DNA from: Bacteroidales bacterium
Lineage (GTDB): Bacteria > Bacteroidota > Bacteroidia > Bacteroidales > UBA932
Assembly (NCBI GenBank): GCA_017519185.1
Contig: JAFWSX010000006.1
Location: forward strand, 96,084 to 160,083
Length of the DNA stretch: 64,000 nt
Direction: 5' to 3'
A program made the position numbers and the translations under genes. The notes under the pieces are model-generated. The model saw only the letters and a list, made by a program, of their open reading frames with translations. It was not told the origin of the DNA and did not search any database. Below are positions 5,606-48,535 of this stretch, piece by piece; within the stretch, counting starts at the first letter, position 1, and each line of letters starts with the position of its first letter.

Positions 5606-6109
5606 ATGAAAATGAGAACATCCCTGAAGAGAATGCTTGTGCTGGCCTTAACGGCGGCAGTCCTCTGCAGTTGCGCGGACTACAGCAAGATTGTCTTCAG
5701 CGATTTCCGTGTCTCGTCCATCGATTCTCTGAAATACAGTCTGACTGACATGAGAGCCATCGTGAACTCGTCGCTGTCTGTCGACAATCCTTATTTCGCA
5801 ATGACATTCAAGGATTTTGCGGCGGATATAGTTACTCAGGAAGGAGAGGCTGTCGCCGAGATAAGGATGGATGAAGGTGTCGAACTGGACATCGCAGCCA
5901 AAGCAAAAACAGAGCTTGAAGCTCCACTCAGGGTGCATGTCCCCAATCCCCTGAAGCTGCTCGCACTAGGACCGGATGCCCTCGGTGCATTGAGCGGAGA
6001 AGGCTATCTGGTCAACTACAGCCTTGCAGTTTCAAGAGGAGGAAAGTTTCATAAGATCAAGAAGAACAATGTTCCTCTGAACTCTTTCATAAAGTCTCAA
6101 GAAGAATGA
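5606..6109 (+). CDS. Hypothetical lipoprotein (possibly LEA_2/NDR1-HIN1-like beta-sandwich)
   Basis: MKMRTSLKRMLVLALTAAVLCSC is a signal peptide plus lipobox Cys. The track start at 5594 is a TTG. The ATGA overlap with the next gene suggests coupling. Confidence 0.7.
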   Translation: MKMRTSLKRMLVLALTAAVLCSCADYSKIVFSDFRVSSIDSLKYSLTDMRAIVNSSLSVDNPYFAMTFKDFAADIVTQEGEAVAEIRMDEGVELDIAAKAKTELEAPLRVHVPNPLKLLALGPDALGALSGEGYLVNYSLAVSRGGKFHKIKKNNVPLNSFIKSQEE

Positions 6110-6594
6110 AAAAGTTAATCATAATGGCTGTCCTGGCTTGTATGTCACTGTTCCACGCAGCGGCACAGGATGACCTTACTGCCGTCAGGGAGTCTGCTCT
6201 GGACTCAACCCTGTATGGTAAAAATGTCTTTACTGTCATAAGCCAGAGCCGGTCAGGTCAGGGCAAGATAACCATCGACCAGCCCAGTTCCCTGGTTTCG
6301 GCAATGGCAAGACACAAGACCAGCAACGCATCCAAGCAGATGAACGGCTACCGTGTGAGGATTTTCTTCGACAACAGCCGTAATGCCAGGGCGGTTTCCG
6401 AGCAGGTGGCCGGTTCTTTCTCGGCGATATATCCCAATGTGGCGGTATACCGTGAATATGAAAACCCGTATTTCAAGGTCACTGTGGGTAATTTCCGCAC
6501 TAAAGCCGATGCGACAAGGTTCCTCAACAATATCAAAGGTCAGTTCCCGTCAGGCTTCATAGTACGGGAAAGAATCACATATCCCAGCTTCTGA
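6106..6594 (+). CDS. SPOR-domain (septal peptidoglycan-binding) protein
   Basis: Signal peptide, then GYRVRIFFDNSRNARAVSEQ...YENPYFKVTVGNFRTKADATRFLNNIKGQFPSGFIV, the classical SPOR repeat pattern. Confidence 0.85.
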   Translation: MKKLIIMAVLACMSLFHAAAQDDLTAVRESALDSTLYGKNVFTVISQSRSGQGKITIDQPSSLVSAMARHKTSNASKQMNGYRVRIFFDNSRNARAVSEQVAGSFSAIYPNVAVYREYENPYFKVTVGNFRTKADATRFLNNIKGQFPSGFIVRERITYPSF

Positions 6595-6599
6595 CAGAT

Positions 6600-8018: not shown

Positions 8019-8019
8019 A

Positions 8020-8060
8020 AATTCCGGCCAAGCAGATGCTGAAGCCGGAATTTCTTTTTT
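8020..8060. terminator. Bidirectional intrinsic terminator between rpoN and the acyl-CoA ligase gene
   Basis: 9-bp stem AATTCCGGC / GCCGGAATT. It is flanked by an A-run upstream and TTTCTTTTTT downstream. Confidence 0.75.
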
Positions 8061-8075
8061 ATATGTTGGTTTAGG

Positions 8076-9719: not shown

Positions 9720-9747
9720 GATTCTTTTTTTTTCGATATTGTGGCGG

Positions 9748-9755
9748 CAAATGTA
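9748..9755 (-). promoter_or_regulatory. -7 box TACATTTG (minus strand) for the acyl-CoA ligase gene
   Basis: Matches TAnnTTTG, 28 nt upstream of ATG 9719. Confidence 0.45.
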
Positions 9756-9825
9756 CCGGAGCATATACTATAAATAAAATAAATGTGATTAATGTGGCCT
9801 ATATTTGACGAAAAAGAGTAATTGA

Positions 9826-9887
9826 GTGACAAAAAGTCTATATTTGTGACAAAAATCAAGAAAGGCGAATTTCGTCACAACGTCACA
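9826..9887. promoter_or_regulatory. GTGAC-core repeat array (candidate operator)
   Basis: GTGACAAAAA occurs at 9826-9835 and 9846-9855, an exact 20-bp period. GTCACA occurs at 9874-9879 and 9882-9887, which is TGTGAC on the other strand. Confidence 0.4.
9839..9846 (+). promoter_or_regulatory. -7 box TATATTTG for the LytTR-yfhO unit
   Basis: Matches TAnnTTTG, 57 nt upstream of ATG 9904. A second copy, CTATATTTG, lies at 9799-9807. Confidence 0.45.
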
Positions 9888-9903
9888 CGACAGTACGGCA
9901 AGC

Positions 9904-10737
9904 ATGAAACCTAACAACCGTCTACTTGGCAAATACAGCAGTCAGCTATGGTATATCATACTGATTCCCTTGTTTTTCCTGGTATTTGTGATAGCCTACA
10001 ATCCTTTCAACATTGAAAGCAGCGAGCTCAGCCGCTACCCTGCGGTCTGGTCCGTGGAAAGCGGGCGATACCAGTTCAATATCGCTATGATAATGTGCAT
10101 CATATTGATGGTGCTGGTACTGTCCAGGACACTGCTTTACATATTGCGAAAGAGTCTGAGCAAGGACGGTGGAAATTACTTCGTCTGGATTTCCGGCGAG
10201 TTTCTCACTATGGCGCTTTTCACGGCATTGTACGTGTCGCTGATCACAAAAGGCGCCCTTTCTTATTTCAATGCGCTGCTTTATTCATTCATCTATCTTC
10301 TGGCAGTCTTGGTATATCCATATCTGGTGATTACTTTGTCCCAACTGCTCAAGTCAGCAAGTGCTTCGAAGGCTGCCGTCGTGGACGATACGGGAACCCG
10401 TATGCGCTTCTATGATGACAAGCACACGCTTAAGTTCGTAATCGCTGCTTCTGCCGTCCTCTATATAGAAGCGCAGGAAAATTATGTGCGCATCTACTAT
10501 ATTGACGCCGATCAGGTGAAAAGTTATCAGCTGAGGGCGACTATGAAGAAACTTGAAGAGAGCCTGTCGTCGAACGGACTAGTCCGTTGCCATCGATCTT
10601 ACTTCGTCAATCCCAAGCATATCCACGCCTTGCGCAAAGACAAGGATAATTATATTTACGCTGAAATCGACGACCTCGCGCATACTACGATTCCCATCAG
10701 CAAAAAGTATTACGACGAGGTGAGCGATCAGCTTTGA
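9904..10737 (+). CDS. Membrane-anchored LytTR-domain DNA-binding protein (about 4 TM helices, no receiver domain)
   Basis: 277 aa with four hydrophobic helices. The LytTR signature follows: VLYIEAQENYVRIYYIDADQVKSYQLRATMKKLEESLSSNGLVRCHRSYFVNPKHI. Confidence 0.85.
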   Translation: MKPNNRLLGKYSSQLWYIILIPLFFLVFVIAYNPFNIESSELSRYPAVWSVESGRYQFNIAMIMCIILMVLVLSRTLLYILRKSLSKDGGNYFVWISGEFLTMALFTALYVSLITKGALSYFNALLYSFIYLLAVLVYPYLVITLSQLLKSASASKAAVVDDTGTRMRFYDDKHTLKFVIAASAVLYIEAQENYVRIYYIDADQVKSYQLRATMKKLEESLSSNGLVRCHRSYFVNPKHIHALRKDKDNYIYAEIDDLAHTTIPISKKYYDEVSDQL

Positions 10738-10758: not shown

Positions 10759-13254
10759 ATGCTTAGAAAAATATTGCCCGATGTCATTGCCATAGTGGCA
10801 TTTGTCATCATATCTTTCGTCTACTTCTCACCTGCAGTCTTCCAGGGCCGCGTCCTTGCTGGAGATGACCACGTGGGAATGATCGGAGCCAACCAGGATG
10901 TAGTCGACTACAGAGATGCGACAGGAATATCTTCCCGCTGGACCAATTCCATATTCAGCGGCATGCCCAACTACCAGATGGCACCAAGCTATGATTCCCA
11001 GTTGCCTCTGAAGTTTATGGGAAAGGTCTACCATCTGTTCCTGCCGACCTACGTGTGGTATCTTTTCGTTCTTCTTCTGGGCTTCTACATAATGATGAGA
11101 GTTCTCGGCATGTCCGTTCTTCTTTCTGCGATGGGTGCCGTCATCTGGGCGTTTTCGTCATATTTCCTCATAATCATCGGTGCAGGGCACATCTGGAAGG
11201 TGACGGTGCTGGCATACGTTCCCCCGACCATAGCGGGCATTCTGCTTACATATCGGGGTAAATATCTTGTCGGAGGTCTTCTGGCCGCATTCTTCGCCGC
11301 ACTGCAGATATGCGCCAACCATATCCAGATGACTTACTATTTCCTTATCGTCATATTATTGCTTCTCGTTGCAGAAGCTGTGATGGCTGTTCGTGAAAAG
11401 CAGTTTCCGCGGTTCCTGAAAGCCACAGGAGTCTTGGCTATAGCCGCAATACTGGCAGTAGGGGTGAACATCTCTAACCTCTACCACACCTATGAGTACA
11501 GCAAGGAAAGTATGCGTAACGGAAGCGAACTGGTGAAGTCCGACAGCGAAAACCAGACTTCAGACGGTCTCGACAGGGATTATATCACTCAGTGGAGCTA
11601 TGGCGTCGGCGAGACCTTCTCTCTGCTGGTTCCGGATGTCAAGGGCGGCTCTTCCAGCATTCCTTTGAACAACCATAAGGCCGCCATCAGGAAGATTCCG
11701 GCTAACAACCGCCAGTATGTCGGACAGTTCGGCTCCTATTGGGGTGAGCAGCCTGGTACATCGGGCCCTGTGTATGTGGGTGCATTCGTTCTGTTCCTCT
11801 TCGTGCTAGGAATCTTCATAGTCAAGGGACCTGTGAAATGGGCTCTCGTGATAGCTACCGTATTGTCGATACTTCTCAGCTGGGGACATAACTTCATGTG
11901 GTTCACCAATCTGTTCATCGACCATTTCCCCCTCTACAGCAAGTTCAGGACGGTTTCATCGATACTCGTGATCGCTGAATTCACTATACCTTTCCTGGCC
12001 GTACTGGCCCTGAAGCAGATCATAGACGATCCGACGGTCATCAAGCGCCGCAAGGCAGCCTTCTGGGGCAGCGCCGCCCTGACCGGCGGTCTGGCTCTGC
12101 TGTTTGCCGTGATGCCCAGGCTATTCTTCCCGAGCTATGTTTCAAGTGCGGAACTGTCAGCTCTCAATACGCTCGACGAGCAGTCCCGGCTTATGCTGAC
12201 AGGCCTGATGGAAGATGTGCGTGTTTCGATTTTCACTGCCGATGCCTGGCGCAGTTTCGCAATAGTGGCAGTTGGAGTGGCTCTCCTGATGCTTTTCCGT
12301 GCAGGCAAGCTCAAGGCTAACGTTACAGTAGCCCTCTGTGCGGTTCTTTGTTTCGTGGATCTCTGGAGTGTCGACAAACGCTACCTCAACGACAGCCATT
12401 TCATTACTCCCAAGGCTTTGAACAAAGTGGCTGAGAAATCTCCGGCCGACGAGTATATTCTCCGTGATAACGACCCTGATTACCGCGTGCTGAACCTTTC
12501 GGCAAATGTATTCAATGACAACACGACGTCATACTGGCACAAGAGCATAGGCGGCTACAGTGCAGTGAAGCTCCGCCGTTATCAGGAAATGATCGAGGAG
12601 CATATCACTCCTGAAATAATGACCCTCTACGACGAGGTCGGCAAGACGAACGGTGATCTGGGCGCTATAGACGTCGCCAAGCTGCCTGTCCTCAATATGC
12701 TCAACACCCGCTATATAGAGTTCCCTCTATCCAGCGGGGAGACAATGCCGCTGCCCAACCCGAATGCGCTTGGAAACGGATGGTTTGTGGACAAGGTGAT
12801 TCCGGTGGAGGACGCCAATGCGGAGATCAGTCTGCTGCACGAAATCAATCCTGGCGAAGTGGCAGTGGTGGACAAGTCGTTCATCGACGCGGTCGGCAAC
12901 GGGGGAGCGGAAGGTACGGTCACATTGACCGAGTATGCCCCGAACAGACTGGTGTATGAAACCAGCAGTGCAAGAGCGGGCACAGTGGTGTTCTCAGAGG
13001 TCTACTACCCTTCGTGGCAGGCGTTCATAGACGGCAATGAAGTTAAAGTCGGCCGAGCTGACTATATCCTCAGAGCCCTTGCAGTTCCCGCCGGACAGCA
13101 TAAGGTGGAATTCGTGTTCGACCCTGTTTCACTGAAACGCACGGAACGGTTTGCCGGAATGTCTTTCGGCATTATGGTGGCAGCTGCATTGGTGATTCTC
13201 GGAAGCGCAGCCGGACGCTATTTGAAGAGAAGGCGCACTGCGAACCAGGCGTGA
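10759..13254 (+). CDS. YfhO-family polytopic membrane protein (GT-C-type extracytoplasmic glycosyltransferase-like)
   Basis: 831 aa. The N-terminal ~450 aa hold many TM helices, followed by a large soluble domain and a final TM helix. This is the size and layout of the bacterial YfhO family. Confidence 0.8.
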   Translation: MLRKILPDVIAIVAFVIISFVYFSPAVFQGRVLAGDDHVGMIGANQDVVDYRDATGISSRWTNSIFSGMPNYQMAPSYDSQLPLKFMGKVYHLFLPTYVWYLFVLLLGFYIMMRVLGMSVLLSAMGAVIWAFSSYFLIIIGAGHIWKVTVLAYVPPTIAGILLTYRGKYLVGGLLAAFFAALQICANHIQMTYYFLIVILLLLVAEAVMAVREKQFPRFLKATGVLAIAAILAVGVNISNLYHTYEYSKESMRNGSELVKSDSENQTSDGLDRDYITQWSYGVGETFSLLVPDVKGGSSSIPLNNHKAAIRKIPANNRQYVGQFGSYWGEQPGTSGPVYVGAFVLFLFVLGIFIVKGPVKWALVIATVLSILLSWGHNFMWFTNLFIDHFPLYSKFRTVSSILVIAEFTIPFLAVLALKQIIDDPTVIKRRKAAFWGSAALTGGLALLFAVMPRLFFPSYVSSAELSALNTLDEQSRLMLTGLMEDVRVSIFTADAWRSFAIVAVGVALLMLFRAGKLKANVTVALCAVLCFVDLWSVDKRYLNDSHFITPKALNKVAEKSPADEYILRDNDPDYRVLNLSANVFNDNTTSYWHKSIGGYSAVKLRRYQEMIEEHITPEIMTLYDEVGKTNGDLGAIDVAKLPVLNMLNTRYIEFPLSSGETMPLPNPNALGNGWFVDKVIPVEDANAEISLLHEINPGEVAVVDKSFIDAVGNGGAEGTVTLTEYAPNRLVYETSSARAGTVVFSEVYYPSWQAFIDGNEVKVGRADYILRALAVPAGQHKVEFVFDPVSLKRTERFAGMSFGIMVAAALVILGSAAGRYLKRRRTANQA

Positions 13255-38247: not shown

Positions 38248-38274
38248 TCTGCACTAAGGCTCATTCTGATATGA

Positions 38275-38307
38275 CTGCGGACCGCAATCAGCGGCCCGCA
38301 GTTTTTT
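38275..38307 (+). terminator. Intrinsic terminator after the GPH symporter gene
   Basis: Stem CTGCGGACCGC / GCGGCCCGCAG (one mismatch) with a 5-nt loop, followed by T6. Confidence 0.8.
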
Positions 38308-38314
38308 ATGCACG

Positions 38315-38373
38315 CTCTGCACGTTTTGAAAGTCCTCTGCGAGTTTTGAAAGCGCCGGTTTCCCCGTTTTGAG
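38315..38373 (+). promoter_or_regulatory. Tandem direct repeats (candidate activator/operator site)
   Basis: CTCTGCACGTTTTGAAAG lies at 38315-38332 and CTCTGCGAGTTTTGAAAG at 38335-38352, 16/18 identical with an exact 20-bp period. A third half-copy, CGTTTTGAG, at 38365-38373 overlaps the -33 TTTG. Confidence 0.55.
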
Positions 38374-38396
38374 CATAGACAGATAAGGATATGCAG

Positions 38397-38404
38397 TATC
38401 TTTG
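38397..38404 (+). promoter_or_regulatory. -7 box TATCTTTG for the small ORF / lipoprotein unit
   Basis: Matches TAnnTTTG, with TTTG at 38368-38371 in a -33-like position. It is 82 nt upstream of ATG 38487. Confidence 0.5.
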
Positions 38405-38486
38405 AAACCATTACAATTAACTTGCTGATAATCAATTGTTGTTTAACAGAATTCTTAAGTCAGGATAATATATATAAAACAATACT

Positions 38487-38630
38487 ATGGAAAAACGTTA
38501 CAAGGAACTCTATGAAGCGCCGTTGACAGAAGTCGTGGAGCTGAATACGAATGCAGGAATTCTCTCTGCCACAACAGAAGATTACACAATGTCAGGCAAC
38601 AGCTATGACGATTCTGATTTTCACGAGTAG
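38487..38630 (+). CDS. Unannotated 47-aa acidic small protein (hypothetical)
   Basis: Hand translation gives MEKRYKELYEAPLTEVVELNTNAGILSATTEDYTMSGNSYDDSDFHE*. It has no signal peptide and no Cys. It ends 12 nt before the lipoprotein ATG on the same strand, and is below the 60-aa cutoff of the ORF track. Confidence 0.4.
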   Translation: MEKRYKELYEAPLTEVVELNTNAGILSATTEDYTMSGNSYDDSDFHE

Positions 38631-38642
38631 GAGGGCAGCAGT

Positions 38643-41600
38643 ATGAAACAAAGAATTACCATTATTATTGCAGCGTTTGCTTTCTTAGCCCTTGTATCCT
38701 GCACAGATGGGATAGTTTCCAATGTCGATCCTGTGCAATCGGCCAATCCCGAAGGTGGCGTAGTGTTCACAGCCACTACGGAAGGCCCAGCCACGAAAAC
38801 AACTTTATCAGGTGATGATGAGAACGGCTACCAGGTCAACTGGCAGAGCGGAGACATGATTGCCGTAAGAAACTATGTATTCGGAACACCACCTGTAGTA
38901 TTCTACACTACCACCAGCAATACCACCTACGGTGAGTTTACCTACGACAGTGGTGCTGAAGAATTGACAAACCCGCCTTACTATGCCTTTTATCCTGCAG
39001 AATACTGGAGTGAACAAAATGCAGCATATCCTGTAGTCCAGAAACACGTCCCTGGAGCGGTAAAGGCTCCGATGTTTGCCTATAGCGAAACCAATCATCT
39101 CCAGTTCAAGAATATCGGCGGTCTTGTCAGGATTAACCTCAAAACTCCTTTGACAGGAAAAAAGATCAAGAAAATCTATCTCTATTCCACCTCCCAGAGC
39201 TTGAGCGGCACCATTACAAACATAACCTCACTTAACAGCAATCCTACCGCAACTGTTGACAAAAACAGTCCGGCCCAGCATCCTGTGGTATTGGAATGCT
39301 GCAATGAAGGCGTGGAGATAGGTTCCTCTCCTACGCCATTCTACATCGCAGTTCCGGCAAACACCTATACCGAACTCACGATAGGTGTAATCACCGTAGA
39401 CGGCATAAAGCAGACTTACACCCTGAATTCAGACAAGAGCATAGTTGTAGAGAGAAGTGCCATTACCGACATAAACCTTACTTTCAACAAGGATCCTGAA
39501 ATCATCGACCTCAGCGAAAACGGTACGGCCAACACCTATATAGTAAATACTGTGGGCTACTATAAGTTCAAGGCTACCGTAAAGGGTAACGGCGGGCTCG
39601 ACCCTGTCACCGGAACAACGGCCACGGAGATAAACAAGAACGACATCAGCGGAGTAACGGTACTATGGGACCTCAAGCAGAGAGGCAATGTCGTATACCA
39701 CGACGGAAAAATGCAGTCCCATCATATTGTTTACCACGACGGCTACATATATTTCTACAAAAACTATAACCTTGAAGGAAACTCTTATGTGGCCATTTTC
39801 AAGGACAAGGAAGGCGGAACCGACGGAGTCTATGACAAGGGAATAGATGAGATCCTCTGGAGCTGGCTCATCTGGGCGACACAAAATCCTTCCAGCGTGG
39901 TTTACAACGGCAACGAGTTCATGGACCGCAACATCGGCTCTGTTACTACCGGAACTTTCGACGACGGAAAATACACCGCAGGTTTCAGCTATCAGTGGGG
40001 AAGACCTGCCCCGTTCGCGTCTTCATTAGGGCAGGCATATACTCCTTTCAATTACGTCCCTCCAAGAACCTCTGTCTTCTCATTTGAAAACATAGGAAAC
40101 GGAACTACCGTAGACCACGCCACTTCACATCCAGTCACATTCTTCTACCATGGCAGCAGAAGCAACTGGATGCCGGATAATGCAACTTGCATGACCCTTT
40201 GGTCAGATGACGTCAAAACCATTTATGACCCGTCACCAATAGGCTGGAAAGTTCCTTCAAAGGCCCAACTGACCGGAATAACATCTGCAGTGTCCTTCTA
40301 TGGATCCGGTTTTATCGGCCCTGGCAGCAGTTCAGATTTCGGATATGGAAATCCTGGCTCCGTTTTGCTGTGGAGCAGTACCTGTGACGACAGTGACGGT
40401 TTCATTGGAGCCTGGGCTAACGCGTATGGCTCAATGTATAAAAAATATGGAAGTTGGCCTGACGTATATATGATGGCCGGTATGCCTGTCCGTCCTGTAA
40501 GAGACGAGTCAACTATGACCTGGGTCGACCTCAGTGCTTCCGGTACAGCCAACAGCTACATAGTTCCCGGATCCGGCAACTACAAGTTCAAGGCAACTGT
40601 AAGGGGCAACGGCGCTGCAGACCTTGCCGGAGTAAGCAAGAACATCAGCGCATCCGAAATTGCCTCCGCATCTCTGGTTTGGGCTAGCTACGGCACAACA
40701 ACAGCTCCGGGAGAAGCTGAGATGTTGTTCAACGTTCATTATCAGGATGGCTATGTCTATTTCCGTGTTCCCGACACTTTCAGGGCAGGCAATGCTGTGG
40801 TTGCAGTAATGAATGCTTCCAACCAGTATCTGTGGAGCTGGCATCTCTGGTTCACCGATGCAGACATTGAAGGCAAAGCCCAGACATATCCAAGCGGAGC
40901 CCAGATGATGGACCGCAACCTGGGGGCCCTGAGCGCCACCTACAATTCATCCAACACGGCAGACTGGGGGCTTATGTACCAGTGGGGAAGGAAGGAACCG
41001 TTCCTGAACTCCTGGAGCAATCAGTATAGCTCCGGCTATATTTCATCATCCAATGCAGGAACTGTGTACAGGCCGGCCGTTTGGGGAACCAATGAAAGCA
41101 TTGTAACTGCATATCAGGCCAATTCTACCGTTGCTGCGGTAAACAGACTGTCACCTACATATCTTTACAGCAGCTGGTACATAAGCAGTTCTCAGTCTGG
41201 TCAGTTGGAATGGGCTTCTGACATGACGGACAATCTCTGGGCAGAAGACAAGACCATCTTTGACCCTTGCCCTGCCGGGTGGAAGGTTCCGGACAAAGCT
41301 GTCTGGGAAGGTTCCTTCATGACCAGCCTTGCCAATGCAACATTCTCCAACAATGGATTCACCGTTTCCGGCATCAGATACCCCAGCACCGCTGTCAGAC
41401 TGCCTCAATCCATTTACATAAACGGCACCAAATACAACAACGGCGGTCTAATACTTGAGAACCAGTCTGATTACCATGTCTTTCTCTGGGCTTTCAACGG
41501 ACAGTTGCACAAGGAGAAATTCAATTATGAAAACGAAGGGCAATATTCACAGGCTCTCCCTGTAGCACCCGGGGTTTATTCAAATCCTCCGATAAGAAGC

Positions 41601-41729
41601 TCTTTCGTCCAAGAGTATGACTTTTCTATAGCATATACTGCGTGGCGACAGGATGCAGGAATGCCAAGTCACTCTACATCTTATTTCTATAGGACCAGAG
41701 CCGGCGCCGTACGCTGCGTTCGGGAATAA
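38643..41729 (+). CDS. Large surface lipoprotein: fimbrillin(Mfa)-like N-terminal region plus two tandem ~340-aa modules, each ending in a FISUMP-like (Fibrobacter succinogenes major paralogous, lectin-like) domain
   Basis: Lipobox AFLALVSC. The N-terminal VVFTATTEG..TKTTL...VNWQSGDMIAV pattern matches Bacteroidales fimbrillin-like proteins. The repeated motif sets are GTAN(T/S)YIV...YKFKATV(K/R)GNG, LWSW(L/H)(I/L)W, MDRN(I/L)G, YQWGR, DP(S/C)P(I/A)GWKVP and VR(P/C)VR(D)E. Confidence 0.85.
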   Translation: MKQRITIIIAAFAFLALVSCTDGIVSNVDPVQSANPEGGVVFTATTEGPATKTTLSGDDENGYQVNWQSGDMIAVRNYVFGTPPVVFYTTTSNTTYGEFTYDSGAEELTNPPYYAFYPAEYWSEQNAAYPVVQKHVPGAVKAPMFAYSETNHLQFKNIGGLVRINLKTPLTGKKIKKIYLYSTSQSLSGTITNITSLNSNPTATVDKNSPAQHPVVLECCNEGVEIGSSPTPFYIAVPANTYTELTIGVITVDGIKQTYTLNSDKSIVVERSAITDINLTFNKDPEIIDLSENGTANTYIVNTVGYYKFKATVKGNGGLDPVTGTTATEINKNDISGVTVLWDLKQRGNVVYHDGKMQSHHIVYHDGYIYFYKNYNLEGNSYVAIFKDKEGGTDGVYDKGIDEILWSWLIWATQNPSSVVYNGNEFMDRNIGSVTTGTFDDGKYTAGFSYQWGRPAPFASSLGQAYTPFNYVPPRTSVFSFENIGNGTTVDHATSHPVTFFYHGSRSNWMPDNATCMTLWSDDVKTIYDPSPIGWKVPSKAQLTGITSAVSFYGSGFIGPGSSSDFGYGNPGSVLLWSSTCDDSDGFIGAWANAYGSMYKKYGSWPDVYMMAGMPVRPVRDESTMTWVDLSASGTANSYIVPGSGNYKFKATVRGNGAADLAGVSKNISASEIASASLVWASYGTTTAPGEAEMLFNVHYQDGYVYFRVPDTFRAGNAVVAVMNASNQYLWSWHLWFTDADIEGKAQTYPSGAQMMDRNLGALSATYNSSNTADWGLMYQWGRKEPFLNSWSNQYSSGYISSSNAGTVYRPAVWGTNESIVTAYQANSTVAAVNRLSPTYLYSSWYISSSQSGQLEWASDMTDNLWAEDKTIFDPCPAGWKVPDKAVWEGSFMTSLANATFSNNGFTVSGIRYPSTAVRLPQSIYINGTKYNNGGLILENQSDYHVFLWAFNGQLHKEKFNYENEGQYSQALPVAPGVYSNPPIRSSFVQEYDFSIAYTAWRQDAGMPSHSTSYFYRTRAGAVRCVRE
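39501..41726 (+). repeat. Internal tandem duplication inside the lipoprotein gene (module 1 39501-40520, module 2 40521-41726)
   Basis: GACCTCAGCGAAAACGGTACGGCCAACACCTATATAGT at ~39507 matches GACCTCAGTGCTTCCGGTACAGCCAACAGCTACATAGT at ~40527. The offset is exactly 1020 bp (340 codons), and the protein motifs repeat in the same order. Confidence 0.8.
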
Positions 41730-41743
41730 AAAGAGAAAAAGGA

Positions 41744-41751
41744 TATCTTTG
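41744..41751 (+). promoter_or_regulatory. -7 box TATCTTTG immediately before the TM-AraC gene
   Basis: Matches TAnnTTTG, 5 nt upstream of ATG 41757. Confidence 0.35.
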
Positions 41752-41756
41752 CAGGT

Positions 41757-43418
41757 ATGAAGCGTTCCGTCCTCATACTTCTTGCTATCCTCGCCGCGGC
41801 GTGCCAAAGTCCAGGTGTTGTGGACCCGTCCAGTCACGACGGTTATGAGTTCCACAAGATGTACGTCGAGCTGCTGCCGGACCTAAACGTACCGCGCAGC
41901 GGGCATAAGCTGGCTTATGTCGGCGGAGAACTGACGGTGATAGGGGGGCACACGACTGGTTTCATTCCCACGTCCACGGCCGAGTACTACAGCGATGGAG
42001 AGTGGCATCTTGTGAACACTCTGTACCCGCACGATTGCGGCTTCTGCGTCGTCCTTCCGTCTGAGGAAATCATAGTCGGCGGCGGCTGCGCCGAACCCTT
42101 CGGTATCGGGCAGACATGGGCTGTGGAGAAGTATGACCCCATATCACACAGTTTCTCCCCGCTTCCGATCCTTGACAGCAAACGTGGAGCCAACGTAATG
42201 GCGGCCCGATTTTCCGACGGCCGCATAATAGTGGCAGGCAACTGGTATGCAGAAGATGTGATATCAACCTACTCGCCCGAATCCGGAGGAACGATCCTTC
42301 GGATTCCGACAATAGGGCGTGCCCATCCGCTTATATTGCAGACCTCGCCTGACAATGCTGTTGTCTTGGGTTCTGTAGGCGAGCGGAATGACATCCTGCC
42401 TCCTGTGGCGGACCGTTTGAGTGGAGATTCTTTCGAAGTGCCGCTGTTGCAGGAGTGGGAGGATTGGTTAATCCCGGGGGGGCAGCAGATGAGTCACTTG
42501 TTCATTGGTGACGAGACAGTGGGTGGTTATGCCTGGCTCTTTCCTGCCGCACGCAAGTCAGATGGTCAGCTGGCTCTGATCAAAGTGGTGGGAGAGACAT
42601 TCTCCGTGCTGGAAACCGAGAAACCACTGCTGATGGATAGTCCTTATAGGGAGCCTCTTTCGCTTTATCCCATGCTGCTTGCCGACAGAGATCGGGAATG
42701 CGCCTGGATAATCCGCACTGTCATTGGAACGAGTGATATCTCTGTGACCAAAGTAGATTATGGCGAAGCTCTTCGTGGCGGCAAGGCTCCGGTAAGCGAC
42801 TATCGTGCTGAACTGCCGGACGGCCTGCTTGCTCCGTGTGAGATTTGGGCGACACTCCTGCCCGGAGGCCGCATCGCCGTTGTCGGGGGCCTTACTTCTC
42901 CGGACAACTATAACCCCAGTGCCGCCGCATTCATCCTGCATACGGAGCCGGAACAGCCAAGTGTAATCCAATGGTGGATGATTGTTTGTGCTTTAGTGCT
43001 GCTTGGCGCTGCCGGAGTTTTTCTGGCCTTTCGTTCCGGAAAAGGCAGGAATGGGCGCGAACAGGTGCCGGAGGGCCCGATGGATGAACTTATGAAGCGT
43101 ATTGCGGTTCAGATGGAGGAAAACCATCTGTTCCTGAGGCCGGGTCTGACAAAAGAAGAAGTTGCACTGGCCGTCGGCTCCAATTCCCGCTATGTGTCCG
43201 ACTGCATCAATCTTAAAGCCGGCTGCTCATTCATCGATTTTGTAAACGATTACCGCATCCGGTATGCACAGCGGCTTTTGTATGAGAATCCTGATATGCG
43301 TGTCGGCGAAATCAGCGAAGAATCCGGCTTCTCCAGCGAAGTCACATTCTACCGCAATTTCAAGGCACGCACCGGCCAGACTCCTACAGAGTGGCTGGCT
43401 TCACAAAGCCGTATGTAA
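41757..43418 (+). CDS. Membrane-spanning one-component regulator: lipoprotein-type signal, periplasmic Kelch/beta-propeller-like domain, one TM helix, cytoplasmic AraC-type HTH
   Basis: MKRSVLILLAILAAAC signal with lipobox. Kelch-like repeats include PRSGHKLAYVGGELTVIGGH, IIVGGG and RIIVAGNWY. The TM helix WWMIVCALVLLGAAGVFLAF is at ~42972-43034. The C-terminal AraC signature is YVSDCINLKAGCSFIDFVNDYRIRYAQRLL...ISEESGFSSEVTFYRNFKARTGQTPTEW. Confidence 0.85.
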   Translation: MKRSVLILLAILAAACQSPGVVDPSSHDGYEFHKMYVELLPDLNVPRSGHKLAYVGGELTVIGGHTTGFIPTSTAEYYSDGEWHLVNTLYPHDCGFCVVLPSEEIIVGGGCAEPFGIGQTWAVEKYDPISHSFSPLPILDSKRGANVMAARFSDGRIIVAGNWYAEDVISTYSPESGGTILRIPTIGRAHPLILQTSPDNAVVLGSVGERNDILPPVADRLSGDSFEVPLLQEWEDWLIPGGQQMSHLFIGDETVGGYAWLFPAARKSDGQLALIKVVGETFSVLETEKPLLMDSPYREPLSLYPMLLADRDRECAWIIRTVIGTSDISVTKVDYGEALRGGKAPVSDYRAELPDGLLAPCEIWATLLPGGRIAVVGGLTSPDNYNPSAAAFILHTEPEQPSVIQWWMIVCALVLLGAAGVFLAFRSGKGRNGREQVPEGPMDELMKRIAVQMEENHLFLRPGLTKEEVALAVGSNSRYVSDCINLKAGCSFIDFVNDYRIRYAQRLLYENPDMRVGEISEESGFSSEVTFYRNFKARTGQTPTEWLASQSRM

Positions 43419-43446
43419 GCCGGGCGGCGTTTGATTCTGGCCGGAA

Positions 43447-45024
43447 TCAATAAGTCGTCTTGATGCGCGAGGCTGTCAGTGTTATGTCTCGGTTCGAAGA
43501 AGCCGGGGCAGGATTGCCTTGGAACCTGCGCTGCTCCGGAGCTACGATCGTTATAGTGAGGTCATCTCTGTCGGGGGAGAAGTTGAAGCGGAAGCGTTCC
43601 TGACAACCGTTGTTGAACAATGACAGGTAATAGGCCCCCAACTCATCGGCTCCTGTCCAGGCACACCAGCCCGCAGTTGTCATCGGCGTGGTGTTCATCG
43701 TGTTGGCATAGACGGTCCCGCCGAAAAGCAGGGTTCTGTCCGTGCTGCCCATCTGCCAGTTGTCCAGGCCGAAAGGTATGTTGTGGATGGCTTCGCCTGT
43801 CTCAAGGGTAAGAGTCATATTGCCCTTGGCGTCGAAACGGAAGGAGATTCCGGTGAGTCCGTATGAGTTCTGGTGCATCCTGTAGCGCAGGGTGCGGGAA
43901 CGTTCTGCCGGTGCGGCAGATGGCTCGGGGAACGGCTTCTTCAGGGCATAGGGCTCGATGGCCGCCTGCAGGTCAAAGTTCTTGTTGGGCTTGAGTTTCT
44001 TGTCGCTCATTCCGTCCAGCAGATTGTATATGAGTTGGTTGAATCCGGCTTCATCGCCAATCTGGCCGTTCGATGCCACCACAAGGTCGTATTCAGGGAT
44101 AACCATTATCAGTTGGTTCTGGCCACCGATGGCTCGCCAGGAATTGTGCCGTCCCATCCATATCTGGTATCCGTAGCCCTGTCCGCCGTCATCCTTGTTG
44201 TTTTCCTCTTCGGAAAGACCCGGTCGCTGGAAAATGTGAGGCGTTGTCATACCCTCCACCCATTCGCGGTTCAGCAGTTGCTTGCCTTGCCATACGCCTT
44301 TGTTCTTCAGAAAAATGCCGAACTTGGCCAGGTCCGAAGTCTTGCTGTGCATGCCGCCGTTGCCCATATTGCGGCCGTCCAGGTCCATCTCCCATGTTAC
44401 GTCGCGGATTCCCAGAGGATCCAGCAGGCGCGGTTTCAGGTATTCATACAGAGTAAGGCCGGTCACGCGGGTGATGATTTGTGAGAGCATATGGGAACAG
44501 GTTATATTGTAGGCGAACGATGTGCCCGGTTCGTGGGCGTAGTCCATAGCCAGGAAAGAGCGCACCTGATCGTCACCGGAGCCGGGATACTGTGTGCGGG
44601 CATGACCGGCCGACATCGTCAGAAGGTGTTCCACAGTCAGTCGTTCCAGTTCCGGGGCAGTCTTTTCCGGCATCAGGTCGGGGAAGAAATCCGTTACCTT
44701 GTCGCTCACTTTCAGCAGCCCCTCCTGCACTGCAAAACCGACTGCTGCACCAGTGAAGGTCTTGGTGGCAGAATACATTGCGTGAGGGTACTGCGGGCCA
44801 TAGGGCGCCCACCAGTGCTCGGCCACCACTTTGTCGTGCCTGAGCAGCATCAGTCCGTGGACCTCGTAACCGCCCTCTTCCAGGGCACGGAACCAGTCTG
44901 AAATGGCTTCCGAGCGGATGCCTTCCGCCTCCGGAGTGCTGCGTTGCAAACCGTCGTCATATACCTGTGCTGACAGTCCAAAGGAGATGCAGAGGACTGC
45001 TAAAAGGATAATAGTCTTTTTCAT
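43447..45024 (-). CDS. Serine hydrolase of the beta-lactamase/class C-like (transpeptidase-fold) family, secreted, with C-terminal extra domain
   Basis: Signal peptide, an S-x-x-K active-site motif (YSATKTF), and a ~150-aa C-terminal extension after the hydrolase fold. Confidence 0.85.
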   Translation of the reverse strand: MKKTIILLAVLCISFGLSAQVYDDGLQRSTPEAEGIRSEAISDWFRALEEGGYEVHGLMLLRHDKVVAEHWWAPYGPQYPHAMYSATKTFTGAAVGFAVQEGLLKVSDKVTDFFPDLMPEKTAPELERLTVEHLLTMSAGHARTQYPGSGDDQVRSFLAMDYAHEPGTSFAYNITCSHMLSQIITRVTGLTLYEYLKPRLLDPLGIRDVTWEMDLDGRNMGNGGMHSKTSDLAKFGIFLKNKGVWQGKQLLNREWVEGMTTPHIFQRPGLSEEENNKDDGGQGYGYQIWMGRHNSWRAIGGQNQLIMVIPEYDLVVASNGQIGDEAGFNQLIYNLLDGMSDKKLKPNKNFDLQAAIEPYALKKPFPEPSAAPAERSRTLRYRMHQNSYGLTGISFRFDAKGNMTLTLETGEAIHNIPFGLDNWQMGSTDRTLLFGGTVYANTMNTTPMTTAGWCAWTGADELGAYYLSLFNNGCQERFRFNFSPDRDDLTITIVAPEQRRFQGNPAPASSNRDITLTASRIKTTY

Positions 45025-45055
45025 AGTGCTTGATAGTTTCCAGCTATGAAGTTAT

Positions 45056-45088
45056 GAAAAAAGCAGCGAATAACTTCGCTGCTTTTTT
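45056..45088 (-). terminator. Intrinsic terminator downstream of tRNA-Leu
   Basis: Stem GCAGCGAA / TTCGCTGC with loop TAAC. It is flanked by A7 and T6, so a U-run follows the stem on either strand. Confidence 0.8.
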
Positions 45089-45090
45089 AG

Positions 45091-45175
45091 TGCCCGGAAC
45101 AGGGCTCGAACCTGCACAGACTATTCGTCCACTAGTCCCTGAAACTAGCGCGTCTACCAATTCCGCCATCCGGGC
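45091..45175 (-). tRNA. tRNA-Leu (anticodon CAG)
   Basis: The reverse complement folds as a cloverleaf. Acceptor GCCCGGA/TCCGGGC, anticodon arm CTAGT-TTCAGGG-ACTAG, a long variable arm, T-loop GGTTCGAGCC. No encoded CCA. Confidence 0.92.
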
Positions 45176-45188
45176 TCAGGGCTGGGTG

Positions 45189-45196
45189 CAAATGTA
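45189..45196 (-). promoter_or_regulatory. -7 box TACATTTG (minus strand) for tRNA-Leu
   Basis: Matches TAnnTTTG, 13 nt upstream of the mature tRNA 5' end. Confidence 0.45.
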
Positions 45197-45209
45197 ATAC
45201 AATTTTTCT

Positions 45210-45238: not shown

Positions 45239-48403
<3,165 letters not shown>

Positions 48404-48456: not shown

Positions 48457-48530
48457 TCCTCTTTAGCTCAGTTGGTTAGAGCACCTGACTGTTAATCAGG
48501 GGGTCCTGGGTTCAAGTCCCCGAAGAGGAG
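48457..48530 (+). tRNA. tRNA-Asn (anticodon GUU)
   Basis: Acceptor TCCTCTT/AAGAGGA, D-arm GCTCAGTTGGTTAGAGC, anticodon arm CCTGA-CTGTTAA-TCAGG, T-loop GGTTCAAGTCC. By hand folding there is one U-C mismatch in the T-stem. Confidence 0.85.
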
Positions 48531-48535
48531 CGCAA

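Follow-up and report, generated by a model that had tools for sequence, protein, structure and literature searches.

Membrane-bound regulators are abundant in Bacteroidota, and those of the ToxR/TcpP/CadC kind (transmembrane transcription regulators, TTRs) are widespread and enriched in Bacteroidia (PMC10269533). TTRs are one-component proteins anchored in the membrane, with the sensor outside and DNA binding inside, and adhesins and pili are frequent among their targets. The regulator considered here is encoded by a plus-strand cassette at positions 38313-43418 of the window (the whole 64,000-nucleotide stretch of DNA that was analyzed, from an uncultured member of the Bacteroidales living in a rumen or gut). 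It shares this general plan, but its topology is reversed (sensor N-terminal, DNA-binding domain C-terminal), it is AraC-type rather than winged-helix OmpR-type, and the cassette has no ToxS/TcpH-like partner gene. The words "AraC" and "Kelch" are absent from the main text of the survey of TTRs (PMC10269533).

The hybrid two-component systems (HTCS) of Bacteroides, as in polysaccharide utilisation loci, likewise combine an inner-membrane location, a periplasmic beta-propeller-type sensor, a cytoplasmic AraC-type HTH_18 domain, and an adjacent target locus, and the regulator's family profile finds a match in the HTH domain of 12aw_A, an HTCS protein of known structure. However, Pfam finds no HisKA, HATPase, or receiver domain in the window's regulator, so a phosphorelay like that of HTCS is not expected. 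It differs also in its propeller (Kelch-type, not Reg_prop/YYY), in having one transmembrane helix plus a lipoprotein-type signal, and in its predicted target, a single lipoprotein operon and not a SusC/D locus. An AraC-type HTH regulator gene beside a presumed surface-protein target also recalls NCBIfam TIGR04094 ("YSIRK-targeted surface antigen transcriptional regulator"). Members of that family are cytoplasmic proteins of Gram-positive bacteria and have neither propeller nor transmembrane segment, and the match is to the HTH only (E = 6e-5, 22 bits where the cut-off is 200), so far below the cut-off that membership was rejected.

The surface protein of the cassette has its own relatives. 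With type V pilins (FimA/Mfa1) and Bacteroidales "putative cell adhesion proteins" (BF1858, BACOVA_04980, BF2867, Mfa3) it shares a lipoprotein precursor and a two-lobed beta-sandwich N-terminal fold, and the basic residue conserved past its first strand lies close to the cleavage sites of FimA and Mfa1, Arg46/Arg49 (PMC8512630). Unlike type V pilins, it has a large C-terminal extension with two lectin-like modules, and its operon is without stalk or anchor pilin genes. The operon differs also in its dedicated upstream small ORF; to our knowledge, none has been described for fim or mfa operons. The C-terminal modules resemble FISUMP (Fibrobacter succinogenes major paralogous, PF09603/TIGR02145) and Lcl_C/DUF1566 (PF07603) in the motifs NLGA...G.Y.WG and GW[KR][VM]P, and a C-type-lectin fold has been reported for DUF1566 (PMC11661182). 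The window protein nonetheless falls below every Pfam threshold, and its domains are larger, with long insertions, each after a beta-sandwich.

We read the cassette as an autoregulated surface-lipoprotein operon consisting of two nested modules, in which the regulator would be an activator and the payload is exchanged (probability roughly 0.62). The comparative basis consists of gene order, co-occurrence, operator conservation, co-variation of operator and HTH, payload swapping, and the folds of the well-modelled parts.

Composition of the cassette

The first-pass annotation described a single plus-strand unit, and each of its parts was recovered at or near the coordinates first assigned:

38274-38309, +: intrinsic terminator of the upstream GPH (glycoside-pentoside-hexuronide transporter) gene and left boundary of the cassette; inverted repeat ACTGCGGACCGC/GCGGCCCGCAGT, then a T-run
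38313-38332, +: operator repeat 1, CGCTCTGCACGTTTTGAAAG, core GTTTTGAAAG at 38323-38332; direct-repeat families D1 and D2, columns conserved in the 13-locus alignment A9
38333-38352, +: operator repeat 2, TCCTCTGCGAGTTTTGAAAG, core at 38343-38352; 20 bp after repeat 1, conserved in A9
38353-38374, +: operator repeat 3, CGCCGGTTTCCCCGTTTTGAGC, weaker, degenerate, and promoter-proximal; third D1 copy, at the position of a -33 element
38397-38404, +: Bacteroidetes-type -7 box, TATCTTTG, consensus TAnnTTTG; 22-23 nt after repeat 3 in 13/13 aligned loci
38405-38486, +: AT-rich 5' leader between the -7 box and the small ORF (GC 0.42)
38487-38630, +: small ORF, 47-aa acidic protein, divergent member of an unnamed small-protein family (HMM match, E = 5e-11)
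38643-41729, +: lipoprotein gene, 1028 aa (ORF)
38643-38702, +: its signal peptide and lipobox, MKQRITIIIAAFAFLALVS-C20, read from the sequence; C20 invariant in alignment A3
38760-39497, +: type V pilin-like (FimA/Mfa fold) stalk, aa ~40-285 (AF2 pLDDT 70-90, Foldseek)
39498-40508, +: head module 1, aa 286-622, beta-sandwich (aa ~290-430) and FISUMP/Lcl_C-like domain (duplication, AF2, hhalign)
40509-41726, +: head module 2, aa 623-1028, beta-sandwich (aa ~630-740) and longer FISUMP/Lcl_C-like domain (same evidence)
41757-43418, +: transmembrane one-component regulator, 553 aa, with a lipoprotein-type signal at Cys16 (Pfam, PDB profile, AF2, Foldseek)
41850-42941, +: its beta-propeller, aa 32-395 (Kelch matches, AF2 model)
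42972-43040, +: its transmembrane helix, aa 406-428 (AF2 model)
43152-43412, +: its AraC-type HTH_18 domain, aa 466-552 (Pfam, AF2 model)

The gaps between the three genes are 12 nt (small ORF to lipoprotein) and 27 nt (lipoprotein to regulator). The cassette had been set apart from its flanks by low GC. That is true of the leader, small ORF, and lipoprotein gene (0.42-0.49, locally up to 0.54), but the GC of the regulator gene (0.54-0.58) equals that of the flanks.

The earlier description of the regulator as a membrane-spanning Kelch/AraC protein agrees with its Pfam matches (HTH_18, E = 2.7e-16, Kelch_6, and Kelch_1, all above their cut-offs) and with the transmembrane helix of the AF2 model (pLDDT 78.7). 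Foldseek returned Kelch and 7-blade lectin propellers, and PDB profile matches of the family, which has more than 528 full-length homologues, were to Kelch propellers and the HTCS HTH domain. Basic residues after the transmembrane helix are consistent with a cytoplasmic C-terminus.

The lipoprotein had been called bivalent and lectin-like. An internal duplication (aa ~290-620 against 625-1028, 29% identity, E = 4e-28) does produce two heads, with motifs MDRNIG...YQWGR and DPSPIGWKVP in the first and MDRNLG...YQWGR and DPCPAGWKVP in the second, but the type V pilin fold of the N-terminal third had gone unrecognised. Foldseek matched this stalk to structures of the type V pilin superfamily (E = 1e-8 to 1e-3; top matches BF1858, BACOVA_04980, BACOVA_04982 [fimbrial protein], PG_0181, BF2867, and Mfa3), with moderate TM-scores to solved pilins, 0.48-0.50 of target. 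After its first strand, in a low-confidence loop 32 residues past the lipidated Cys, comes a near-invariant T51-K52. The lectin-like character has partial support. Homologues at 38-47% identity carry PF09603 or PF07603, FISUMP, Lcl_C, Laminin_G_3, and Big_2 Pfam domains occur in homologues and sister payloads (the latter matching Lcl_C), and hhalign against FISUMP/Lcl_C-like lipoproteins gave 94% probability, over 32 columns only. The window lipoprotein itself, however, has no direct Pfam or NCBIfam match, and its lectin-like parts are modelled at pLDDT below 50-60. Its likely role is to bind glycans or cells while displayed on the outer membrane, although just one acidic residue follows the lipidated Cys (TDGIV...), so that a surface-export signal is not evident.

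Promoter and operator repeats

The hairpin of the GPH terminator (38274-38302, with 12-nt arms, 92% complementarity, and a T-run after) is found also in a sister locus, L086. After it come the direct repeats (n = 3, ~21 bp), of which repeats 1 and 2 are in 20-bp phase. The exact 10-mer GTTTTGAAAG has two copies in the whole window, both at the cassette promoter. All 13 loci of A9 show three in-phase repeats, 22-23 unconserved nucleotides, and then TAnnTTTG, which we take to be the consensus of the Bacteroides -7 promoter box; in repeat 3, the conserved columns read ...GTTTT(T/C)(T/C)CGTTTTGA. Judging from this alignment, the box at 38397-38404 is likely the promoter element of the cassette. 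A sigma-70-like match at 38443-38471 was rejected as a promoter, being no better than chance. The 5' leader has no Rfam match. About 50 nt of it are missing from the sister-strain allele when the window is aligned with L086, and for that reason the payload probably has its left recombination junction in the leader.

Pairing of operator and regulator

A motif-cluster search of 82 loci found 13 clusters. In twelve cases the cluster comes 54-77 nt before the leading gene of an operon that has the regulator as its last gene, and this holds for every kind of payload (even one of 231 aa without a small ORF). Outside such positions, the searched loci contain practically no clusters. The regulators of a second operator type (B) form one clade, and a third type marks another group of regulators. 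Twenty-three positions in the C-terminal DNA-binding region discriminate A-type from B-type regulators, and two A clades have recognition-helix residues in common despite an overall identity of just 48-50%. In these comparisons operator type tracks regulator clade and HTH residues, as would a cognate pair, and the first-pass view of the repeats as a cis-element tied to the regulator is borne out to this extent.

A same-strand lipoprotein gene lies immediately upstream in ~26 of about 32 loci whose regulators are at least ~41% identical. Regulators at ~35% identity are found in other contexts, often with a secreted-protein gene downstream, so the arrangement is not universal. Co-occurrence had been expected from the other direction as well, and six further lipoprotein loci (L001-L003, L083-L085) all have the small ORF directly upstream, with a Kelch-TM-AraC regulator directly downstream in five and convergent in the sixth. 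The components of the proposed three-gene cassette do occur together, but as two nested modules rather than one obligate system. The promoter repeats and the regulator would make up the first, a conserved frame.

The small ORF and the pilin-like stalk

Members of the small-ORF family share the consensus M-x4-K-x2-YEAP-x2-EV-x-EV-x3-GVIC-x-S, then an acidic/aromatic tail (alignments A2 and A7). An exhaustive search gave 1,493 clusters at 50% identity, all of 37-107 aa. The window's copy has Leu and Ala in place of a Cys and a Ser at least 90% conserved in the family and, having lost these near-invariant residues, may be decaying. In 2.24 Mb of loci, every member has a lipoprotein gene within -20 to +15 nt downstream, and the stop-to-start distances include overlapping ATGA arrangements. 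These lipoproteins nearly always begin with a type V pilin-like domain, regulator present or not. The small ORF precedes 28/32 pilin-stalk proteins and 0/4 stalk-less payloads. Its tail class co-varies with the class of the stalk domain; co-variation of adjacent genes can stem from linkage instead of interaction. The ratio of non-synonymous to synonymous change (pN/pS) is 0.28-0.78, below 1 in all informative pairs. The specific partner of the small protein would seem to be the pilin-stalk lipoprotein and not the regulator, and the pair would constitute the second module, able to travel with or without the regulator.

Exchange of the lipoprotein

The chromosomal site of the window's cassette is occupied in L086 (GPH 99% identical) by the same repeats, a 346-aa stalk-less lipoprotein, and a regulator only 69% identical to that of the window. 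L087 (GPH 97% identical) has no cassette at this site. At another site, which EamA and radical-SAM genes flank, the payloads are of 231 aa, of 429 aa with a small ORF, and of 963 aa with a small ORF. The window lipoprotein is 80% identical to a relative whose regulator is only 39% identical. These patterns show that the lipoprotein is freely swapped within the promoter/regulator frame, even at the same site in a sister strain.

Proposed mechanism and alternatives

According to the model, the Kelch-type propeller of the regulator would lie in the periplasm, one helix would cross the inner membrane, and the AraC-type double HTH would be cytoplasmic. Three regulator molecules would occupy the three ~21-bp direct repeats (core CGTTTTGAAAGT). 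Since the last repeat is at the -33 position, 22 nt upstream of the TAnnTTTG box, bound regulator would recruit RNA polymerase like a class II AraC-type activator. A periplasmic ligand meeting the propeller would lead to positive feedback, because the regulator gene is the last in the operon. The payload (a pilin-fold stalk bearing two heads that each combine a beta-sandwich with a C-type-lectin-like FISUMP/Lcl_C domain) would be displayed on the outer membrane, there to bind glycans or cells; the roles in adhesion or with phage raised in the first-pass annotation may be imagined on the same footing. The 47-aa acidic protein would be translationally coupled to the lipoprotein, and our best guess is that it is a cytoplasmic or co-translated factor on which synthesis or export of the stalk domain depends. 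Recombination would exchange the payload inside the conserved frame.

Perhaps the regulator is instead a repressor, or dual, and when on the repeats blocks RNA polymerase until a periplasmic signal arrives, giving negative autoregulation. Repeat 3 overlaps the -33 position, the repeat-to-box spacing is fixed, and the TTTG of repeat 3 is 25 nt from the -7 box. The -33/-7 spacing of Bacteroides promoters is about 19-21 nt, so with the longer spacer this TTTG need not be a functional -33, and the repeats could act by occlusion. However, AraC/XylS proteins on direct repeats abutting or overlapping -35 are typically activators (AraC, MelR, RhaS, MarA), and no second TTTG is well placed to serve as a -33 at the canonical distance, as one would expect of an activator-dependent promoter, which makes repression unlikely. 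Far less credible still is an incidental adjacency, where the repeats serve another regulator and the targets of the Kelch-AraC protein are unrelated loci. An upstream lipoprotein gene is indeed missing for about half of the family's more distant members, but operator type shifts with the clade and HTH residues of the regulator even as payloads differ, the operator stays with the regulator beside the 231-aa payload, and motif clusters hardly occur elsewhere in the loci searched.

The function of the lipoprotein might also be different. If it is the adhesin at the tip of a type V pilus, cleaved after Lys52 and assembled by donor-strand exchange with stalk and anchor pilins encoded elsewhere, then the match of its N-terminal domain to FimA/Mfa-superfamily structures, including the tip protein Mfa3, the nearness of T51-K52 to the cleavage sites of FimA and Mfa1 (PMC8512630), and the two tandem pilin-like genes of L001 would all make sense. 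We consider this doubtful, given that the window cassette and most sister cassettes have no stalk or anchor pilin gene, that the TM-scores are moderate, and that stalk-less lectin lipoproteins fill the same frame, which suggests that the heads work without a filament. Nor do we know of a gingipain-like protease in these organisms. A comparable degree of doubt attaches to the idea that the small ORF is only a leader cistron, perhaps decaying in the window, that feeds ribosomes to the lipoprotein start in a host that makes weak use of Shine-Dalgarno sequences. The close or overlapping stop-to-start junctions, the lost Cys and Ser, and pN/pS values up to 0.78 in some close pairs (with very few changes) fit such a role, but a pure coupling device needs no 28-residue N-terminal consensus (YEAP..EV.EV...GVIC.S), and this one is kept across the 1,493 clusters. 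The pN/pS below 1 in every informative pair, the co-variation of tail and stalk classes, and the stalk-less lipoproteins that do without the small ORF in the same frame also speak against it.

An autoregulated, activator-driven operon with an exchangeable payload would be of a kind already known, in which a transmembrane one-component regulator controls a neighbouring surface-protein gene. Exchange of the payload would give strain-level variation in surface specificity.

Organization of the cassette and its surroundings

The gene unit noticed in the first-pass annotation between the terminator of the GPH (glycoside-pentoside-hexuronide transporter) gene and a convergent hydrolase gene is present with all its parts, on the plus strand:

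Features of the cassette and its borders (window positions)
38274-38302, followed by a T-run: terminator hairpin of the GPH gene, the left border of the cassette
38487-38630, plus: small ORF, 47 aa
38643-41729, plus: lipoprotein gene, 1028 aa, after a gap of 12 nt
41757-43418, plus: regulator gene, 553 aa, after a gap of 27 nt
43447-45024, minus: hydrolase gene (beta-lactamase fold), convergent with the cassette

At a GC fraction of 0.42-0.49, the lipoprotein gene over most of its length and, 5' of it, the small ORF and leader bear out the earlier impression of a cassette poorer in GC than its flanks; the regulator gene does not, its 0.54-0.58 being at the level of the flanks.

No Rfam family matches the cassette region or its leader at E <= 1, and a known RNA element in the leader was dropped as a candidate on that ground. 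A SusC/SusD pair was sought in the cassette and is absent, none of the three genes encoding a TonB-dependent transporter or SusD. In this the cassette differs from a polysaccharide utilization locus (PUL), where SusC and SusD are adjacent; it adjoins instead the GPH transporter and the beta-lactamase-fold hydrolase. An origin as a defence system or from phage was also dropped, as PADLOC models match none of the three cassette proteins and no relatives of the regulator were found on viral contigs.

The hydrolase, previously labeled a serine hydrolase, has 3-succinylated cholic acid synthase as its best NCBIfam match (E = 7e-85, 285 bits against a cut-off of 800) and, on that similarity, may be distantly related to a bile-acid-modifying enzyme in rumen or gut Bacteroidales. 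Farther on, 1.7 kb downstream of the cassette, a beta-galactosidase-like gene (45248-48403) is flanked by tRNA-Leu(CAG) (45090-45175, minus) and tRNA-Asn(GTT) (48457-48531, plus); no integrase was seen beside either tRNA gene in the window.

Recurrence of the components and exchange of the payload

If the cassette were one functional unit, its regulator, its lipoprotein, and the short ORF upstream should be found together elsewhere, and they do recur together, whether one starts from the lipoprotein or from the regulator. Lipoproteins 80% and 71% identical to that of the window occur in L001-L003 (L-numbers denote homologous loci fetched from other genomes) in another genome context, beside uvrC, where the order is a 48-aa ORF, an 829-aa Laminin_G_3 lipoprotein, a second 48-aa ORF, a lipoprotein of ~1000 aa, and an HTH_18 regulator. 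With remoter relatives of the lipoprotein (L083-L085), a member of the small-ORF family lies directly 5' in all three loci and an HTH_18 regulator lies downstream in two; in the third, a convergent regulator follows another Big_2/Lcl_C protein.

The regulator-side survey covers 79 loci with relatives of the regulator, mostly from MAGs of rumen Bacteroidales and also from Prevotella, Alloprevotella, and the isolate Phocaeicola oris 14-104, at locus L079. Where the regulator is at least about 41% identical to that of the window, a lipoprotein gene lies immediately 5' on the same strand in about 26 of 32 cases. The payload, by which we mean what lies between operator and regulator, may be a small ORF with a pilin-like lipoprotein of 429-1236 aa, a BACON lipoprotein with a pilin-like protein of ~960 aa, or a minimal FISUMP/Lcl_C-like lipoprotein of 231-237 aa that has neither the pilin-like N-terminal stalk nor a small ORF. 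Among regulators of ~35% identity, a gene for a secreted protein or lipoprotein often lies immediately 3' instead, and in this branch the payload seems to have flipped from upstream to downstream of the regulator. A conserved lipoprotein of ~334 aa (MSKMMKAVAALMLMTAVVFTAGCNKPEDEPNN...) is found immediately 3' of the regulator (~150 nt) in L042-L058, L065, and L080, all of the same branch.

The BACON arrangement, a lipoprotein of ~250-325 aa and then a pilin-like protein of ~900-990 aa with no small ORF, is seen in L010, L012, L014, L018, L019, and L028-L030 (at ~6100-10000 in each). C-termini were read for three of the BACON proteins, and all three finish with an acidic/aromatic tail (...GEDYGYGESHGWD) that recalls the tail of the small ORF; in some loci the protein with this tail has ~265 aa and comes before a pilin-like protein of ~960 aa. 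Homology between the two was dropped, since an HMM comparison gave no significant match (best E = 7.7, unrelated proteins), and the likeness is taken as compositional only.

The lipoprotein of the window is 80% identical to that of L001, yet the regulators of the two loci are just 39% identical, and the regulators nearest to that of the window (63-68% identity) accompany unrelated payloads. At the EamA transporter/radical-SAM site, the same operator and regulator are found with a payload of 231 aa, of a small ORF plus 429 aa, or of a small ORF plus 963 aa. Four genomes there present four differing payloads in one operator-regulator frame:

Loci at the EamA/radical-SAM site
L006, 8287-11584
L008, 9056-11581
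L026, 9150-11650
L083, 4712-9631

The site occupied in the window, recA-trpS-GPH, can be followed in relatives. L086, a metagenomic contig whose GPH gene is 99% identical, shares with the window the terminator, all three repeats, and the -7 box; its payload is a 346-aa stalk-less lipoprotein, and its regulator is only 69% identical to that of the window. The same site holds two metabolic genes and no cassette in L087 (a 97% relative) and an ABC transporter in L098 (91%). The GPH genes of L086, L087, L098, and L121 are 91-99% identical to that of the window, and what lies 3' of GPH (equivalent to window 38248-45200) differs; the contents of the first three mark this region as a strain-variable hotspot. 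The presence or absence of the whole unit and its change of allele bear out the idea that the cassette is self-contained. In L121 a ribosomal-protein operon follows recA-trpS-GPH, possibly through rearrangement or an assembly join.

To judge from these comparisons, the payload is exchanged inside a conserved frame of promoter and regulator. The cassette had been pictured as a single sense-and-display unit, a picture that is supported and at the same time recast: what recurs is better described as a socket of regulator and operator, holding an exchangeable module of small ORF and pilin-stalk lectin.

A probable operator that tracks the regulator

The cassette promoter carries two 18-nt direct repeats, CTCTGC(AC/GA)GTTTTGAAAG, 20 bp apart, and a third, weaker copy 23 bp onward. 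The whole 64-kb window has just two exact copies of the core GTTTTGAAAG, both in this promoter. Across 82 loci, 13 clusters of core motifs spaced 19-24 bp apart were found, and 12 of the 13 lie 54-77 nt 5' of the first gene in an operon whose last gene encodes the regulator, a position independent of payload type. Thirteen promoters of this kind, aligned, exhibit three in-phase repeats (consensus TTTTTCnCGTTTTGAAAGTC, GnCTGCGCGTTTTGAAAGTn, and nCGGTTTTTTCGTTTTGA), then 22-23 unconserved nucleotides, then TAnnTTTG, which we take to be the Bacteroides -7 consensus. This box is preferred to a sigma-70-like promoter at 38443-38471, which was rejected because it lacks conservation and because shuffled sequence yields as many matches of this kind.

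Eight regulators forming one monophyletic clade have a second element, unrelated to the first (...ATGAGAACAGGATTCCGGTCCATGAGACAAATGGTCCGG..., type B), 5' of their operons, and a third marks one more regulator group. When regulators are grouped by operator type (the repeats of the window being type A), 23 positions in the C-terminal DNA-binding region discriminate A-type from B-type regulators. Two A-type clades are just 48-50% identical overall, yet they have recognition-helix residues in common (e.g., SN.RY.SDCIN vs TN.AYVRGCIS). That operator type tracks regulator clade and helix-turn-helix (HTH) residues is what binding of the regulator to its own promoter would predict, and the repeats would then be a conserved operator tied to it. 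An AraC-type domain with two HTH motifs spans, as a monomer, roughly 20 bp, as established for MarA and Rob, and such a footprint would fit the length of the repeats. Co-occurrence and the co-variation of operator with HTH support the earlier model in which a propeller sensor, the repeats as its operator, and a surface binder work together; activation, a ligand, surface exposure, and binding are what we infer for the cassette proteins. The promoter-proximal repeat falls at the -33 position, which favors activation and hence the regulator as an activator at the cassette promoter. A repressor at the same promoter is the less favored reading, though one to be kept in mind.

Some loci carry, just 5' of the operator, GC-rich tandem repeats (e.g., GGCCCCGCAAAGGGGCGTTTCGCGGGCCAGATGG) that recur every ~39-51 bp and could form hairpins; they look like REP-type intergenic repeats:

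GC-rich tandem repeats
L024, ~7610-7760
L032, ~7760-7900
L016, ~12250-12340

The Kelch-AraC regulator

Pfam recognizes HTH_18 (E = 2.7e-16, 60.1 bits vs a cut-off of 33.6) and HTH_AraC (31.6 bits vs 26.6, aa 470-548) in the regulator and, near its N-terminus, Kelch_6 (28.3 bits vs 25.3) and Kelch_1 (21.6 vs 20.1). A profile of 14 members matches Kelch propellers (Keap1, KLHL, and designed Kelch) and also AraC-type HTH domains, one of them from a hybrid two-component system protein of solved structure. The AF2 model (pLDDT 78.7) consists of a signal helix, an all-beta region (aa 32-395), a long helix (406-428), and a C-terminal domain of seven helices (441-552, pLDDT ~90). In Foldseek, Kelch proteins, galactose oxidase, and seven-bladed lectins match the beta region with probability 1.0; the region is read as a Kelch-type beta-propeller, the putative sensor domain. 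The C-terminal domain, with its two HTH motifs, places the protein in the AraC/XylS family.

The long helix corresponds to a hydrophobic stretch, WWMIVCALVLLGAAGVFLAF, between propeller and HTH domain. With a DNA-binding domain and a predicted transmembrane (TM) segment in one chain, the regulator fits the class of transmembrane transcription regulators (TTRs). Since its N-terminus bears a lipoprotein-type signal (LAAAC, Cys16) and a basic stretch (RSGKGRNGRE) follows the TM helix, the propeller should be periplasmic and the HTH domain cytoplasmic. In hybrid two-component systems (HTCS), the sensor is followed by kinase and receiver domains before the AraC HTH is reached, but Pfam and NCBIfam find no HisKA, HATPase_c, or receiver domain in this regulator, where ~40 residues alone separate TM helix and HTH domain.

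The family is large, with 528 proteins at E <= 1e-3; the 120 listed are all full length, and their sources name them only generically, as in "AraC family transcriptional regulator". A 2023 survey, whose main text contains neither "AraC" nor "Kelch", found an enrichment of TTRs in Bacteroidia, most of them of hybrid kinase form (PMC10269533). Nothing relevant to a Kelch/AraC membrane regulator was found in the literature searched. Set against known systems, the pair would be a new variant, in which an AraC-type transmembrane regulator that is not a hybrid and that senses through a Kelch domain would control a lectin lipoprotein with a type V pilin fold.

The lipoprotein

The lipoprotein has a signal peptide and a lipobox (MKQRITIIIAAFAFLALVS-C20) whose cysteine is invariant in 23 homologues; signal peptide II and cysteine would make it a lipoprotein precursor, as type V pilins are. 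Its sequence matches no Pfam or NCBIfam model at E <= 0.1, FISUMP (PF09603) and Lcl_C (PF07603) included, and nothing in the PDB at E <= 1. Internally it is duplicated, aa ~290-620 resembling 625-1028 (29% identity, E = 4e-28).

The AF2 model, from an alignment of 23 sequences, has a mean pLDDT of 67. It is confident at aa ~40-285 (pLDDT 70-90) and in two beta-sandwiches (aa ~290-430 and 630-740); the segments that follow each sandwich are modeled poorly, pLDDT in the head domains being mostly below 60. The top Foldseek matches in the PDB all belong to the Bacteroidales pilin superfamily (3t2l, 3ufi, 4eps, 4rdb, 4h40, and 5nf4; probability ~1.0, TM-score to the target 0.22-0.50), with "cell adhesion" or fimbrial matches to BF1858, BACOVA_04980, BACOVA_04982, PG_0181, and BF2867, and Mfa3 further down. 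The model points to the two-domain beta-sandwich pilin fold of FimA and Mfa. Type V pilins are made as lipoprotein precursors and cut after Arg46 (FimA) or Arg49 (Mfa1), which opens a donor-strand groove (PMC8512630). A near-invariant Thr51-Lys52 after the first strand of the window lipoprotein is at a similar position, suggestive only of a counterpart to the cleavage site. Type V pilus operons encode stalk and anchor pilins, which polymerize through a C-terminal donor strand, but that of the window has one pilin-like gene only.

The poorly modeled segments carry MDRN(I/L)G...YQWGR and DP(S/C)PxGWKVP. Full-length homologues of 34-47% identity match PF09603 (Fib_succ_major) or PF07603 (Lcl_C/DUF1566), and hhalign aligns the lipoprotein profile to FISUMP/Lcl_C-like lipoproteins with 94% probability and E = 1.4e-7, spanning 32 columns only. 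None of the 50 Foldseek matches listed is a CLec structure, and the sole tie to the C-type-lectin fold is the report of that fold for DUF1566 (PMC11661182). The protein had been called bivalent and lectin-like. The duplication upholds the first term; the second, for heads that are poorly modeled and lack a Pfam match of their own, is plausible only.

A family of small proteins

An HMM made from three copies of the small ORF finds 29 members in the first 82 loci, each followed by a lipoprotein gene at -20 to +15 nt. An exhaustive profile search of 1.84 billion representatives finds 1,493 clusters at E <= 1e-3, of which the best 150 are 37-107 aa long and in no case one domain within a longer annotated protein. 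Members share a sharply defined consensus, M-E-x-K-x-K-x-L-YEAP-x3-V-x-EV-x2-EGVIC-x-S and then a short acidic tail with an aromatic/aliphatic end; pN/pS for close pairs is 0.28-0.78, with few changes. The members examined are named only "hypothetical protein", Pfam and NCBIfam models do not match them, and the literature searched held nothing relevant to a small protein 5' of fimbrillin genes. Within these libraries and literature, the family appears to be undescribed.

The 2.24 Mb fetched encode 32 pilin-like N-domain proteins. A strict match to the small ORF lies 5' of 25, a divergent member 5' of three more, and the rest belong mostly to the BACON-preceded group. Stalk-less payloads lack the small ORF (4 of 4), and distant members of the family are followed by a lipoprotein gene where no Kelch-AraC regulator is close by. 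Also, the class of the small-ORF tail (...Y-D/G-D/E-x-D-F vs ...E-E-x-W/L/I) co-varies with the class of stalk domain, in 21 of 25 cases by strict pattern and in 25 of 25 by inspection. Co-occurrence and co-variation both argue that the small protein belongs with the stalk domain rather than with the regulator. As it has no signal peptide, it would presumably work in the cytoplasm or during translation.

The copy in the window scores 37 bits, lower than the family, and has Leu and Ala in place of the Cys and Ser whose conservation in the family is at least 90% (GILSA for GVICxS); it may be a functional variant or a decaying copy. Its only close relative is the protein P0260 (98% identity). In its N-terminal half (YEAPLTEV) it resembles the first of the small ORFs in L001 and not the one that lies 5' of the orthologous lipoprotein; this suggests a recombination junction between small ORF and lipoprotein gene. 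Read-through from one to the other was dropped: in the window they lie 156 nt apart and in frame, but in L001 the distance is 158 nt and the frame differs. Pairs of small ORF and lipoprotein gene are frequently found in tandem, two or three at a time; the two pairs of L021 are near-identical duplicates on the strand opposite to the regulator operon:

Tandem arrays
L164, 5001-8753
L001, 5150-11054
L021, 4166-8016

A possible fixed socket for exchanged adhesins

Perhaps the ~45-aa YEAP...GVIC.S proteins are an undescribed, obligate partner in the biogenesis of type V pilin-fold lipoproteins of Bacteroidota, either a cytoplasmic chaperone or targeting factor acting before export or a peptide whose acidic/aromatic tail fits the donor-strand groove of the stalk, while operator and Kelch-TM-AraC regulator stay in place as a fixed expression socket, and recombination brings differing adhesin payloads into it, so that surfaces vary from strain to strain. 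We put the probability of this reading, taken whole, at about 0.3.

In gut and rumen communities the Bacteroidota predominate, and it is surface lipoproteins that set what they bind: glycans, other cells, hosts, perhaps phages. Exchange of the payload even where the neighboring gene is 99% identical would be a compact route to strain-level variation in surface specificity. The regulators, with more than 500 full-length homologues, would be a large membrane-spanning family that does without a phosphorelay, and since comparative data give the operator directly, the circuit from sensor to promoter is immediately testable and could be reused as a genetic part. Proteins of ~45 aa are easily missed in annotation, and some 1,500 clusters of them, coupled to genes for pilin-fold lipoproteins, stand unannotated. 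We know of no dedicated partner for pilin-like proteins in the current model of the type V pilus; if the reading is true, the small protein would be a missing component in how Bacteroidota build pilin-like surface proteins.
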